Assembly: GCA_012702815.1 (NCBI GenBank)
Contig: GCA_012702815.1_3927.1
Strand: one strand, 5' to 3'
DNA from: a phage
DNA length: 26,024 nt
Below the pieces are notes generated by a model. That model did no database searches. It saw only the letters and a list, made by a program, of their open reading frames with translations, and was not told the DNA's origin. Each line of letters starts with the position of its first letter. Within the stretch, counting starts at the first letter, position 1. The position numbers were made by a program, and so were the translations under genes. Positions 4,196-22,907 of the stretch are shown piece by piece.

Positions 4196-5273
4196 AGACG
4201 GCTCTTTTAACGTCTGGTCATGCGTTGCTGTAGGTGACAAAGTTATTACAACCTACGGTAAAGAAAATGGCAAGATGATGTTTGAAGAGTATACAGCAGA
4301 ACCTAAAAACATCGGTAAAAAGAATGAGCGTAACGCTGAACAGCAAGCTCTCTTTGAAGTTGCTGCAAAGTATAAAAAGCAGGTTGACCGCAAAGGTTAT
4401 GCTTACACAAAAGAGTCTGCACAGAATACCGAGAAGGTAGGTGTACAGCTTGCTCATGATGCTGCAAAGGTTAGCCATGCAAAGTATCTGAAGTTCCCTG
4501 CTGATGCTCAACCGAAACTTGATGGTGTCCGTTGTAGGATTTCAAGGCACTTGAGTATTGGCAGTGTATTTACAGCATATTCTCGTGAGAATACTGTTTA
4601 CAAAATCCCTACTGAACTAATACCTGACATTATGGCAATGTTAAGGCTCCACAAAGATGTTGATGAATTTGATGGAGAGATTTATGCTCATGGGTGGGAC
4701 TTAGAAGATATCGTCTCCATGATTAAAAATGAAGACAATCCTGACAGACACCTACTCAAGTTTTACTGGTATGATATCTGTGACAGTACTAAGACGTGGC
4801 CTGAGCGTAGAGATATTATTGAGACTTCACCATTGAATGACTTCAGAGACGGCTGTAAAGTTGTCCCTGTTAAGTCTCGTCGTGTTAACTCTTGGGAAGA
4901 GTTTGATGAAGCTCATGATAAGTGGGTTGAAGCTAAGTTTGAAGGTGCAATGTACCGTTCAATCTCTGAAGACTCCTTCTATGAGTGTTGTCACCGTTCG
5001 TACTTCTTGATTAAGCACAAGAAGATGCACACTGAAGAGTTTAAAGTGACTGGTGTCAAGACTGATAAACGTGGTCATGGCAAGTTCGTTGTAGAGACTC
5101 TTCCTAATGTCTTTGTAGATGTCTCATGGAAGACTACTCATGAGAAGAAACAGTATCTTGCTGAGCATCCTGAAGAGTTTATCGGGAAACCTTTAACGGT
5201 ACAGTTCCAGAAGATGACTCGCAAGGGGTCTTTGCAGTTCCCTGTTGGACTAGTTATTCGAGACTACGAATAA
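4170..5273 (+). CDS. ATP-dependent DNA ligase
   Basis: Adenylation motif I KLDGVR (Lys about residue 116) and downstream FDGEIY motif. RBS AGAGGTG before ATG 4170. About 100 aa of extra N-terminal sequence relative to the minimal T7-type ligase. Confidence 0.85.
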   Translation: MTTLYKQNKDGSFNVWSCVAVGDKVITTYGKENGKMMFEEYTAEPKNIGKKNERNAEQQALFEVAAKYKKQVDRKGYAYTKESAQNTEKVGVQLAHDAAKVSHAKYLKFPADAQPKLDGVRCRISRHLSIGSVFTAYSRENTVYKIPTELIPDIMAMLRLHKDVDEFDGEIYAHGWDLEDIVSMIKNEDNPDRHLLKFYWYDICDSTKTWPERRDIIETSPLNDFRDGCKVVPVKSRRVNSWEEFDEAHDKWVEAKFEGAMYRSISEDSFYECCHRSYFLIKHKKMHTEEFKVTGVKTDKRGHGKFVVETLPNVFVDVSWKTTHEKKQYLAEHPEEFIGKPLTVQFQKMTRKGSLQFPVGLVIRDYE

Positions 5274-5280
5274 AAAGTTG

Positions 5281-5308
5281 TTGACATAGAAAATTTGGTG
5301 AGTATACT
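5281..5308 (+). promoter_or_regulatory. sigma70-like promoter candidate (TTGACA - 16 nt - TATACT)
   Basis: TTGACA at 5281-5286 and TATACT at 5303-5308, in the intergenic region after the ligase gene; a 9-bp inverted repeat (5296-5304 / 5329-5337) flanks the -10 and predicted start site. Confidence 0.5.
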
Positions 5309-5341
5309 GAGCAGCATAAACCAACGGGTACTCACCAGCAT

Positions 5342-5500
5342 CACTTAAGAGTCTTTCTAAGAGGGTTTTTAAGTAATGTGATGTTTGGTTTGGTGTGGTC
5401 AGGTAATGTGATGTCTGGTTTAGTGCGGTGATGTGCGGTCCGGTAAGGTCCGGTGCGGTAAAGTGCGGGTAGTTAGTCTCAGCTACATTAAAATGAGACT
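5342..5500 (+). repeat. composite repeat module A1 (type-1 header + 19 phased pentamers + hairpin)
   Basis: Header CACTTAAGAGTCTTTCTAAGAGGGTTTTTAAGT (5342-5374); NGTNN pentamers in unbroken 5-nt phase 5377-5471; hairpin AGTCTCA / TGAGACT with loop GCTACATTAAAA (5475-5500), followed by TACC TTTTT. Confidence 0.8.
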
Positions 5501-5504
5501 TACC

Positions 5505-5633
5505 TTTTTAAAAGGTCTTTAAGAGGGTCTTTTAATAAGGTGCTGTATGGTAAGGTGATGTCTGGTGTGGTAGGGTGAGGTTAAGTGAGGTGAGGTATGG
5601 GTGGATGGTAGTAGCCACGTTAAAAATCTACCA
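5505..5633 (+). repeat. composite repeat module A2 (type-2 header + 12 phased pentamers + hairpin)
   Basis: Header TTTTTAAAAGGTCTTTAAGAGGGTCTTTTAATAAGGT (5505-5541); phased pentamers 5539-5598; hairpin TGGTAG / CTACCA with 16-nt loop TAGCCACGTTAAAAAT (5606-5633). A degenerate third header copy follows at about 5642-5668. Confidence 0.8.
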
Positions 5634-5690
5634 AGTTTCTAAAGAGTCTTCTGTTGAGGGTTCTTTACAAACAACTTAACAATCAACTAA

Positions 5691-6296
<606 letters not shown>

Positions 6297-6298
6297 TT

Positions 6299-6739
6299 AT
6301 GAATACAAAAGCATTAGCAGCAAAGTTTAGTTACGGTGACACTGTATCACACTCTGAGATGGACACCTTCTTAGGTATTGTGAAGCCAACTTATCAAGGT
6401 GACATTGTTAAGTACGAAGATGAAATGAAGGCTTATGCGCTTACACGTCTAAACCGACTTGAAAAGTTTATTGAAAAACTTCTTAAAGAAGAGAAGATTT
6501 ATCTGGTTGCTTCAATGGGTGTTGGTTATCGTGTGGTTGAACCTAAGCATCAAGCAACTATTGCAAAACGCAAAATGTCTGGTAAGATTGGTCGTGCTTT
6601 AAAGCAAGCCACTCAAGCGATTGAGAATGTGAACACTATGGCACTTAGTCATCAAGAACGTTCACGACTGATTGAACAGCAAAATCACTTAGCTGCTATG
6701 AAAGCTAATATTAACAAGCAACGCAGAAAACCTTTCTAA
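6299..6739 (+). CDS. hypothetical protein (second gene of repeat-bracketed cassette)
   Basis: Starts 2 nt after the upstream stop; followed by an intrinsic terminator at 6751-6773. Lys/Arg-rich C-terminus. Confidence 0.6.
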   Translation: MNTKALAAKFSYGDTVSHSEMDTFLGIVKPTYQGDIVKYEDEMKAYALTRLNRLEKFIEKLLKEEKIYLVASMGVGYRVVEPKHQATIAKRKMSGKIGRALKQATQAIENVNTMALSHQERSRLIEQQNHLAAMKANINKQRRKPF

Positions 6740-6750
6740 GTTGACTAGGT

Positions 6751-6773
6751 AGCCTCTTCGGAGGCTCCTTTTT
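6751..6773 (+). terminator. intrinsic terminator after the two-gene cassette
   Basis: Stem AGCCTC / GAGGCT with TTCG tetraloop (6751-6766), then CC and TTTTT (6769-6773). Confidence 0.6.
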
Positions 6774-6902
6774 AAAAGGTCTTTAAAGAGGGTCTTTTAA
6801 TAAGGTAAGGCACGGTTATGTCAGGTATGGTACGGTACGGTTAGGTAAGGTGAGGCGGAGTAAGGTATGGGTAGTTAATCGGAGCTACATTAAAATTCGA
6901 TT
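6769..6902 (+). repeat. composite repeat module B1 (type-2 header + phased pentamers + hairpin)
   Basis: Header matches A2 apart from a single 1-nt indel (6769-6806); pentamers 6804-6868; hairpin AATCGGA / TTCGATT with the same loop as A1, GCTACATTAAAA (6877-6902). Confidence 0.8.
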
Positions 6903-7040
6903 ACATCACTTAAGAGTCTTTTAAGAGGGTTTTTAAGTGAGGTGTGGCACGGTAATGTTAGGTAGGGTCAGGTCAGGTCAGGTGAGGTAAGGTAAGGTGA
7001 TGTATGGAAGGATGGCAGTAGCCTTATAAAAAATCTGCCA
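6903..7040 (+). repeat. composite repeat module B2 (type-1 header + phased pentamers + hairpin)
   Basis: Header matches A1 apart from a single 1-nt indel (6906-6938); pentamers about 6936-7005 including GGTCA x3; hairpin TGGCAG / CTGCCA with loop TAGCCTTATAAAAAAT (7013-7040). Confidence 0.8.
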
Positions 7041-7058
7041 AATAAGCTATAAAATCTG

Positions 7059-7093
7059 TTGACAAGTCAGGTGTTATAGCTTATTTTTATACT
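7059..7093 (+). promoter_or_regulatory. candidate promoter (TTGACAAG box - 23 nt - TATACT) inside a 9-bp inverted repeat
   Basis: TTGACAAG at 7059-7066, TATACT at 7088-7093; inverted repeat AAGCTATAA (7044-7052) / TTATAGCTT (7074-7082) brackets the TTGACA box. Confidence 0.35.
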
Positions 7094-7131
7094 CAATGTA
7101 ATACAAAATTTAATATAACTTTGAGGTCATT

Positions 7132-7515
7132 ATGAAAAAGATTTTATTAGCTGCTGCAATGGTTATGGCAATGAATTTACCAGTCAATGCAACAGAACTT
7201 CCAAATGTGGACTTATCAGGTGTTCCAGAAGACACTTGTCAGATTGTTAAAGGTGTTGCTTTGACTAATGGTGAGTTACTTAAACCAATCTCTGAAGAGT
7301 CTTTAACAGAGATGACTGATAAGGTAACTGACTATCAGTATCGTGTTCTTGCAGAGTATTTCCTGCAATCTGCAAATATTAAAGAGAAGCACCATGATGA
7401 TATTGATGTACAGGCCATGATTAACCATCGTATTCAGTTTAAAGAAGATTTGATGCAAAAAGCTATGTATGGTGTTGAGTATTTCTTAGAAAACAGAAGC
7501 TGCACAGGTATTTAA
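7132..7515 (+). CDS. putative secreted/periplasmic protein with Sec signal peptide
   Basis: N-terminus MKKILLAAAMVMAMNLPVNA-TE: basic n-region, hydrophobic core, AXA-like cleavage site VNA. RBS GAGGT upstream. Confidence 0.6.
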   Translation: MKKILLAAAMVMAMNLPVNATELPNVDLSGVPEDTCQIVKGVALTNGELLKPISEESLTEMTDKVTDYQYRVLAEYFLQSANIKEKHHDDIDVQAMINHRIQFKEDLMQKAMYGVEYFLENRSCTGI

Positions 7516-9715: not shown

Positions 9716-10615
9716 ATGTCACAAGCAGATACAAGTTACAAAAATATCCTGAACCATGTTTTATCCGTTGGTGAACTACGTACTACACGAACTGGAGATG
9801 TTATCTCTGCTTTTGCTCCACCTCAGTTTCGTTTTGATATGCGAACTGGTTTCCCGCTCTTAACATCTAAACAGGTGTTTACACGGCAAGTTATTGGGGA
9901 AGCTTTATGGTTCCTGAATGGTGAGAATAAACTGGGTGAACTCCGTTACCGCACTTGGGATGAAAATGATGGAGAACGCTGGACTATCTGGTCAGATGAT
10001 TTTAAACGCTGGTTAAGCTCTAATTATTCTTCTGAACAAGACTGGTTAGATGACGCAGGTGGGAGAATCTACGGGGTTCAGTGGAGAAACTTTGAAGGTC
10101 ATAATGGTTGTGTTGTAGACCAGTTAGAGACCTTAGTAACGAAGATGAAGGGTGATATTACAGACCGCTACATGCTTGTTAATGCTTGGAATGCAGCAGA
10201 TATCGCAGCAAACTCAATGGCTTTAGCACCTTGTCATGTTCTGTTTCAGATTTATATCACTAACGAAGGTGAAGTTGACTTACAGTGGTATCAACGTTCA
10301 GTAGACACCTTTTTAGGACTTCCGTTTAATATTGCGTCTTATGGTTTCATCTTAGAAGTTCTTTGTAAGATGACTGGATACACTCCACGGTACTTGATAG
10401 GTGTCTTTGGGGATACCCAGATTTATCAGAACCATATGAAGCAGGTTTATGAGCTTATGAACAATGAAGAGTTTCATGCACCAACTTTTGAGATTGGCAT
10501 ACCACTTAATACTTTAAGTGACTTGAAGCATCTTACTGCAAGTGATTTTATTGGTGGTATTTACAACTACCAACATGCAGGGAAGATTGAAGCGCCTCTG
10601 TCAGTAGGTAAGTAA
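9716..10615 (+). CDS. thyA: thymidylate synthase (ThyA family)
   Basis: Catalytic-site signature ALAPCH, then QRSVDTFLGLPFNIASY and FGDTQIYQNH. Carries an insertion relative to bacterial ThyA (about DENDGERW...DDAGG). Confidence 0.85.
   Translation: MSQADTSYKNILNHVLSVGELRTTRTGDVISAFAPPQFRFDMRTGFPLLTSKQVFTRQVIGEALWFLNGENKLGELRYRTWDENDGERWTIWSDDFKRWLSSNYSSEQDWLDDAGGRIYGVQWRNFEGHNGCVVDQLETLVTKMKGDITDRYMLVNAWNAADIAANSMALAPCHVLFQIYITNEGEVDLQWYQRSVDTFLGLPFNIASYGFILEVLCKMTGYTPRYLIGVFGDTQIYQNHMKQVYELMNNEEFHAPTFEIGIPLNTLSDLKHLTASDFIGGIYNYQHAGKIEAPLSVGK

Positions 10616-17519: not shown

Positions 17520-22906
<5,387 letters not shown>

Positions 22907-22907
<1 letters not shown>

Follow-up and report, generated by a model that had tools for sequence, protein, structure and literature searches.

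The region described here lies on a phage contig (GCA_012702815.1_3927.1, assembly GCA_012702815.1), of which a stretch of 26,024 nucleotides, hereafter the window, was analysed. The source phage is a Felixounavirus, and its region 5200-7200 is 99% identical to that of Escherichia phage vB_EcoM_ASO1B and 90-94% identical to that of about 160 Felix O1-like phages. Two repeat islands bracket a two-gene cassette. Each island comprises two modules, and each module consists of a header, an array of 5-nt repeats and a structured 3' end. The first-pass annotation had described island B as a second module pair on the other side of the cassette, and these boundaries were confirmed in the sequence. The main features are as follows.

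5281-5308, + strand: sigma-70-type promoter (TTGACA-16-TATACT, 11/12), predicted to drive island A and vipr-vap
5337-5640: island A, with two matching modules across the cassette, A1 (5337-5506) and A2 (5507-5640)
5375-5469, + strand: guide-RNA (vrRNA) array A1, 19 NNGGY pentamers (18-19 units)
5537-5601, + strand: vrRNA array A2, 13 pentamers, 11 variable units
5635-5672, + strand: header-like hairpin without an array (a fifth copy), 3' of the A2 tail and 5' of the ribosome-binding site of vipr
5709-6296, + strand: vipr, encoding a 195-aa RAMP-fold protein that polymerises on GGY repeats
6299-6739, + strand: vap1, accessory gene of 146 aa, downstream of vipr
6751-6775, + strand: terminator-like hairpin and T-run 3' of vap1, the T-run being common to the B1 header hairpin
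6769-7040, + strand: island B, with two modules, B1 (6769-6898) and B2 (6899-7040)
6802-6871, + strand: vrRNA array B1, 14 pentamers, 12 variable units
6939-7008, + strand: vrRNA array B2, 13 variable units and a constant last pentamer (14-15 pentamers)
7040-7086, + strand: inverted repeat with Ts after it; overlaps the promoter that comes next (7059-7087)

The promoter at 5281-5308 is also found upstream of vrRNA1 of Escherichia phage SUSP1. Island B sits past the terminator-like hairpin, and the promoter scan found no recognisable promoter for it. The last nucleotide of island B, 7040, is exactly the final paired base of the B2 3' pseudoknot described below. The inverted repeat of 19 nt that directly adjoins this pseudoknot is 89% complementary, and with the Ts that follow it may, judging from the sequence, form the end of the island B transcript.

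A scan of the 26-kb window for GT at a period of 5 returned only four stretches, at 5349-5487, 5511-5619, 6786-6884 and 6918-7026. All four are on the + strand, with NN-G-G-T as the in-register reading, and the signal is absent from the opposite strand of the window. The header core motif, searched with up to two mismatches, likewise occurs four times, only at the four module sites. The 89.5-kb genome of ASO1B, the closest relative (99% identical), contains no other arrays of at least 13 repeats. Array A1 is over-long because it holds a diverged tandem duplication of 30 nt (six pentamers) at 5373-5429.

The conservation of the modules was assessed among relatives, where 23 clade loci yielded 99 modules with 67 unique arrays and 76 unique modules. 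Over the 67 unique arrays, positions 3, 4 and 5 of the pentamer are G (0.77), G (0.98) and T (0.82), and positions 1-2 (NN) are close to unconstrained. Among the 76 unique modules of these 23 related phages, same-class mean pairwise identity is 0.93 for the tail, 0.88 for the header, 0.83 for GGY and 0.34 for NN; header, frame and tail are thus kept, and the content of the arrays is not. The type-2 headers (A2 and B1) and the type-1 headers (A1 and B2) each differ by a single 1-nt indel once flanking bases are trimmed from the alignment, as had been reported. The reported divergence of the arrays holds for NN (identity 0.20-0.38 between paired modules of islands A and B) but not for GGY (0.80-0.82), so only two of the five positions have diverged. 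Similarly, the proposal that selection acts on header and periodicity rather than on array sequence agrees with the conservation of headers (0.88) and GGY (0.83), but it misreads NN, which are the specificity code and not a product of drift.

The header order, type 1-type 2 in island A and type 2-type 1 in island B, is reversed between the islands, as the first-pass annotation had pointed out. However, relatives show 3-6 modules per phage in several layouts (2P-2Q, 2P-1Q, 2P-1P-2Q, 2P-2P-1Q and others, where P and Q denote tail types), and since module number and order vary in this way, the reversed order in island B is no feature in itself. Header type tracks position: type 1 follows the promoter leader or an AATCGGA-type tail, and type 2 follows a terminator or an AGTCTCA-type tail. 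Q-type tails are found on the last module of each island and P-type tails on internal modules.

Every tail fits an H-type pseudoknot with two stems, S1 and S2:

5469-5500, + strand: A1 pseudoknot, P type; S1 5469-5472/5483-5486, S2 5475-5481/5494-5500
5601-5633, + strand: A2 pseudoknot, Q type; S1 5601-5604/5615-5618, S2 5606-5611/5628-5633
6871-6902, + strand: B1 pseudoknot, P type, AATCGGA/TTCGATT variant; S1 6871-6874/6885-6888, S2 6877-6883/6896-6902
7008-7040, + strand: B2 pseudoknot, Q' type; S1 7008-7011/7022-7025, S2 7013-7018/7035-7040

In the 15 distinct P-type tails, the 11 proposed pairs are 100% paired and three pairs are changed on both sides (AGUCUCA/UGAGACU versus AAUCGGA/UUCGAUU), the variant present in B1 being the source of the compensatory changes relative to A1. 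The six distinct Q-type tails are 98% paired, with three compensatory pairs (GUGG/CCAC versus AAGG/CCUU, and GGUAG/CUACC versus GGCAG/CUGCC); in B2, AAGG/CCTT and GGCAG/CTGCC covary with GTGG/CCAC and GGTAG/CTACC. Slid controls were 24-35% paired for the P type and 24-52% overall. These covariation counts come from about two haplotypes per tail type and so represent few independent events. The Q-type tail of A2 is identical to the tail of SUSP1 vrRNA1. [quoted passage not shown] In Rfam 15, searched at permissive E-values, the only matches were snoRNA-like ones attributable to chance, and no family fits the modules.

The headers, of about 35-40 nt, all fold as G·U-rich hairpins of 12-16 bp with an outer 3-6 bp, and fold z-scores range from -2.3 to -4.0:

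5338-5379, + strand: type 1 header hairpin before A1, MFE -12.6 kcal/mol, z -3.4
5501-5542, + strand: type 2 header hairpin before A2, MFE -13.7 kcal/mol, z -3.1
6767-6805, + strand: type 2 header hairpin before B1, MFE -12.3 kcal/mol, z -2.3
6902-6944, + strand: type 1 header hairpin before B2, MFE -14.4 kcal/mol, z -4.0

The G·U content argues for a structure formed by the + strand at the RNA level. RNAalifold, applied to three header families, gave a consensus of 11 pairs, five with compensatory changes, for an imperfect cross-family alignment and with a weak consensus energy. The type-2 headers do start at T-runs (6769 and 5505), as had been noted, and the suggestion that a hairpin plus T-run belongs to the unit is correct with respect to the 3' element, which takes the form of a pseudoknot and not of a plain hairpin. 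The T-run, on the other hand, is not the terminator tail of the preceding unit, since folding places both T-runs in the 5' strand of the next header hairpin. The header-like hairpin at 5635-5672 has the same sequence in 21 of the 23 related loci and looks like a boundary or processing element that parts the guides from the mRNA, as far as its sequence and place tell. A possible role of the header as a sigma-70 promoter was discarded: the best candidate, TTAAAA-17-TTTAAT, does not have the A at position 2 of the -10 element, and the scan made no call.

The nature of the cassette had escaped the first-pass annotation; it encodes Vipr, the protein that reads these RNAs. The product of vipr is identical at 191 of 195 positions to PDB entry 36pp ('SUSP1 Vipr protein') and 97.9% identical to the product of the phiSUSP1 gene, which places it in the SUSP1 Vipr clade, defined by >90% identity to SUSP1 Vipr. 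The protein has the RAMP fold, and the residues of its G-loop and thumb by which GGY is recognised are in place. The residues contacting GGY, as listed in the companion cryo-EM preprint (10.64898/2026.04.26.720927), are H17, E71, M72, R138, C173, D177, W178 and R179, and all are kept. Vap1 is identical at 145 of 146 positions to the SUSP1 vap1 product and occupies the same position downstream of vipr. It belongs to phrog_5926, a PHROGs family of unassigned function. A single-sequence model of Vap1 reached a pLDDT of 68 and gave no fold match below an E-value of 0.2, the weak top matches being winged-helix regulators. A Pfam search with Vipr and Vap found no domain, including no cas domain, and the PHROGs search returned only families of unknown function for the two proteins.

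Outside the clade, distant Vipr homologues (37-40% identity; IMG/VR contigs L024-L029) likewise have GGY/NN arrays at their flanks, with 9-20 units each. These arrays are mostly GGC-rich, have other tails and are without the Felixounavirus-type header, and some directly adjoin the ribosome-binding site of the next gene. In addition, GU169904.1 (Staphylococcus phage SA1) contains at 91679-92263 a Vipr gene that shares 99.5% identity with that of Felixounavirus, which suggests that this record is chimeric or contaminated.

VIPR (Viral Interference Programmable Repeat) systems consist of the stand-alone RAMP protein Vipr, a vap accessory gene in the operon and vrRNAs, in which a run of 9-16 YNNGG repeats leads into a structured 3' tail, although the search in the describing preprint used a minimum of 4 repeats (10.64898/2026.04.26.720920). 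The model system is that of SUSP1, which also belongs to the Ounavirinae; its vrRNAs are RNAs of ~100 nt that co-purify with Vipr and repress transcription, and its vap1 product is predicted to bind DNA (10.64898/2026.04.26.720920). One Vipr protomer is present per repeat, with the GGY bases sequestered and the NN presented, and the NN then pair with double-stranded DNA in a register that leaves out each third base of the target, whereby transcription is silenced (10.64898/2026.04.26.720920, 10.64898/2026.04.26.720927). The locus described here shows the tandem YNNGG arrays, the conserved GGY with hypervariable NN, and the invariable pseudoknot 3' tail of such systems. Arrays B1, B2 and A2 fall within the published range of 9-16 repeats and A1, with 18-19 units, exceeds it. 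We therefore consider it highly probable that this Felixounavirus carries a type II VIPR system and that 6769-7040 is its downstream array of guide RNAs. Each module would be the precursor of one vrRNA, comprising a GGY/NN run, the H-type pseudoknot as its 3' cap and the preceding header hairpin, and vipr (5709-6296) encodes the small Cas7-like RAMP protein that reads the adjacent guides.

The possible targets of the guides were found in Escherichia coli. When complete E. coli genomes were searched by BLAST with the locus as query, vrRNA-like tails came up in 149 of them, situated in an element of ~12 kb that is integrated in yecE and at other sites. This satellite carries serine recombinase, tape-measure and baseplate genes, and relatives of it are present in 568 of 5,426 E. 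coli genomes (about 10%). Eleven satellites were scanned with the NN of each guide kept and each GGY replaced by one free base (skip 1), and the best targets were the following.

B1 target: 25/26 NN, in a noncoding region of the satellite (L005 14591-14628, E. coli EC12, NZ_CP070229)
B2 target: 23/26 NN, in a 109-aa gene, found in six satellites (L005 11649-11686)
A2 target: 21/24 NN, 10 consecutive NN being perfect, in a 236-aa gene (L005 10355-10389)
A1 target: 21/24 NN, for the 3' 12 units only, in the tape-measure gene (L005 8634-8668)

All four guides thus match the satellite at 88-96% of their NN positions with a skip of 1 alone; skips of 0, 2 or 3 gave at most 19 matches and shuffled NN order at most 21. 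By sequence match, the guides follow the one-base-skip rule of VIPR targeting. The same holds across the clade, where a score of 80% or more is attained by 53 of the 67 guides with a skip of 1 and by 5-7 of 67 with the other rules. Matches are concentrated in the satellites, with 223 inside them and 2 in the 75 kb of flanking chromosome. The 5' six NN of A1 are without a match to its satellite target; the restriction of the match to the 3' 12 NN fits growth of the R-loop in the 3'-to-5' direction (10.64898/2026.04.26.720927). Within the annotated gene matched by B2, the base that is skipped is the second of the codon instead of the wobble base. A target perfect over the full length of a guide was not found, and scans of IMG/VR for the exact B1 and B2 patterns gave 0 matches each. 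A Pfam search with five satellite proteins, including the products of both targeted genes, found no domain. Four apparent matches of at least 80% between guides of other phages and the phage window were discarded, as they came from mis-parsed or very short arrays (13/16 to 17/18).

The satellite shares tail genes with the phage. Its baseplate protein is homologous to the product of the window ORF at 19879-20679 (- strand, 266 aa), with 64-97% amino acid identity, and its tape-measure protein to that of the ORF at 20679-22907 (- strand, 742 aa), with 30-38%. Such homologues are unusual cargo for an integrated element of ~12 kb. On the basis of these sequences, the shared tail genes fit a satellite that would be a parasite of this phage group, and the phage would use its four guides to repress the satellite during infection.

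A different use of the guides, namely temporal regulation of the phage's own genes rather than of a competitor, would be in line with the silencing of transcription by VIPR and with the location of the locus among early genes. However, the best self-target of any of the four guides reaches at most 75% of NN in the 89.5-kb ASO1B genome, which is background, and at most 71% in the window, against 88-96% in the satellite, and we regard self-regulation as very unlikely. The arrays could also be conceived as a protein sponge or decoy RNA of the CsrB/RsmZ or TRAP type, which would titrate a host RNA-binding protein and in which NN would be irrelevant spacers. The many evenly spaced GG motifs, the untranslated nature of the RNA, the strong promoter upstream and the lack of an Rfam family match are all compatible with such a role. 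Nevertheless, it is extremely unlikely: the NN are informative and match satellite DNA in the 1-nt-skip register only, the motif, which recurs strictly every 5 nt, is GGY rather than the GGA that CsrA recognises in hairpin loops or the (G/U)AG of TRAP, and the adjacent gene encodes the solved Vipr protein, a binder of these repeats.

Equally improbable in our view is an element acting as DNA, such as iterons, a partition-protein site or a G-rich R-loop replication origin. GenBank labels ('DR_4', 'StbAB binding site') and the G-rich non-template strand downstream of a strong promoter speak for it, but the G·U pairs and the strand-specific compensatory changes make sense only for a + strand RNA, the other strand has no period-5 signal, and in SUSP1 the corresponding elements give rise to RNAs of ~100 nt, which are recovered together with Vipr (10.64898/2026.04.26.720920). 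An origin as neutral repeats of the microsatellite kind, or as the decaying remains of a coding gene that was once duplicated, which the length variation and the internal 30-nt duplication of A1 might recall, has a negligible probability, because coding does not go together with a period of 5, the GGY frame stays at 0.77-0.98 over 67 unique arrays while NN vary, and the flanking structures covary; the coding remnant, which the first-pass annotation had named as a refuting outcome, is thereby ruled out. Several further candidates were dropped given the VIPR preprints and the target matches: an RNA with TRAP-like binding at a period of 5, boxA-like antitermination within the header, a sponge of the Shine-Dalgarno or tRNA-CCA kind, two-tier G-quadruplexes, and an origin based on an R-loop, as with the immunoglobulin switch pentamers.

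With the VIPR assignment retained, the locus can be compared with that of SUSP1. The two share Vipr (98% identical) and Vap1 (99%), the DNA ligase gene upstream, the promoter, the terminator, both header types, the P, Q and Q' tails, the GGY/NN code and the class of target, an E. coli satellite sharing phage tail genes. They differ in genus, SUSP1 being a Suspvirus, in the arrangement of the guides (one upstream and three downstream in SUSP1, two and two here), and in all four guide sequences, A1 being longer here (18-19 units). The element is probably functional, yet it belongs to a published, structurally solved system, and the locus lies inside the model clade.

Comparison with better-known systems reveals both likenesses and differences. 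As in the backbones of Class 1 CRISPR-Cas effectors (Cas7/Csm3/Cmr4), one protomer is placed per fixed RNA step with thumb-induced base flipping, and as in CRISPR arrays, a variable guide stands beside constant structured RNA and tandem guides are parted by constant sequence. In contrast, CRISPR has a 6-nt periodicity and a contiguous spacer, whereas VIPR has a 5-nt periodicity and dispersed NN dinucleotides. Unlike CRISPR, VIPR skips one base in three of the target, requires no PAM, is carried by a virulent phage and, by the preprint's description of VIPR loci, comes without Cas1/Cas2 or other cas genes. Scans for tandem and direct repeats found no repeat-spacer array with contiguous spacers. 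The trp leader RNA bound by TRAP in Bacillus resembles the vrRNA in having a triplet motif every ~5 nt and one protein subunit per repeat. It differs in its (G/U)AG motif, in the protein ring, in the fold and host clade, in spacers that hold no information, and in its function, which is attenuation of one operon and not recognition of DNA.

Existing annotation of these elements is heterogeneous. In the ASO1B record, a segment of array A1 and the header hairpin of B2 are called rho-independent terminators (L003 1731-1764 and 3203-3247, corresponding to 5434-5467 and 6906-6950 of the window), the wV8 record labels the elements DR_4, and the KhF3 record gives 'possible binding site of StbAB'. Besides the ASO1B positions, the labels lie at L001 1665-1722 and 3058-3115, and at L002 1665-1675. 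The labels 'DR_4', 'StbAB binding site' and 'rho-independent terminator' on these elements are misleading and are corrected here. The genome papers of Felix O1 and UAB_Phi87 do not mention the repeats.

The header hairpins and the hairpin preceding vipr are also present in SUSP1 and are discussed in neither VIPR preprint. The header would lie outside the mature vrRNA, because the preprints give the latter as at most ~100 nt, made of repeats and tail. The hairpin, of 12-18 bp, occurs at each junction, be it of leader with guide, guide with guide or guide with vipr mRNA. From the folding models and the limited covariation we infer that the header may act as a processing and boundary signal that releases single guides: the hairpin would be removed in maturation, plausibly by an RNase III-type cleavage, and would mark the boundaries between guides and between guide and vipr mRNA.

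Four of the 11 satellites carry one vrRNA of their own, with the phage Q-type pseudoknot and without a phage-type header (L005 14910-15115, in E. coli EC12, NZ_CP070229; L036, L037 and L039, near 10480-10590). It has its own promoter (TTGACG-17-TATAAT) and terminator, and its guide is nearly identical in all four. A vrRNA with its own promoter and terminator and no header would fit a header that is required only where several guides share a transcript. No Vipr or Vap gene was found in the 11 satellites, so the orphan guide would need the protein of the helper phage, which suggests that the satellite loads its own guide onto the helper's Vipr. No target of the satellite vrRNA was found in the phage genome (best 16/24). 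Its best skip-1 match, 22/26, is to a REP-like sequence of the chromosome in the cmoB-torZ interval (L005 19570-19607); it is near the ceiling of shuffled guides and may therefore have no significance. The B1 target lies ~360 nt upstream of the satellite's own vrRNA. As this target occurs only in satellites carrying that vrRNA, the phage guide may aim at the satellite guide locus.

Taken jointly, the proposal that the header hairpin is a maturation element and that the satellite orphan vrRNA loads onto the Vipr of the helper phage is a tentative one, which we regard as less likely than not. If it is true, the junction of tail and header would work like a CRISPR repeat, setting the processing sites, perhaps for RNase III, and would also give recombination homology that shuffles guide cassettes between phages.

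VIPR, which was published in April-June 2026 and is proposed by its discoverers to be ancestral to CRISPR, represents a second, non-CRISPR route by which RNA guides a protein to DNA. The present analysis adds an independent derivation of the one-nucleotide-skip code from another phage genus and, for all four guides studied here, predicted targets. Moreover, the header hairpins and the orphan guides of the satellites raise questions regarding the maturation of vrRNAs and the arms race between phage and satellite.
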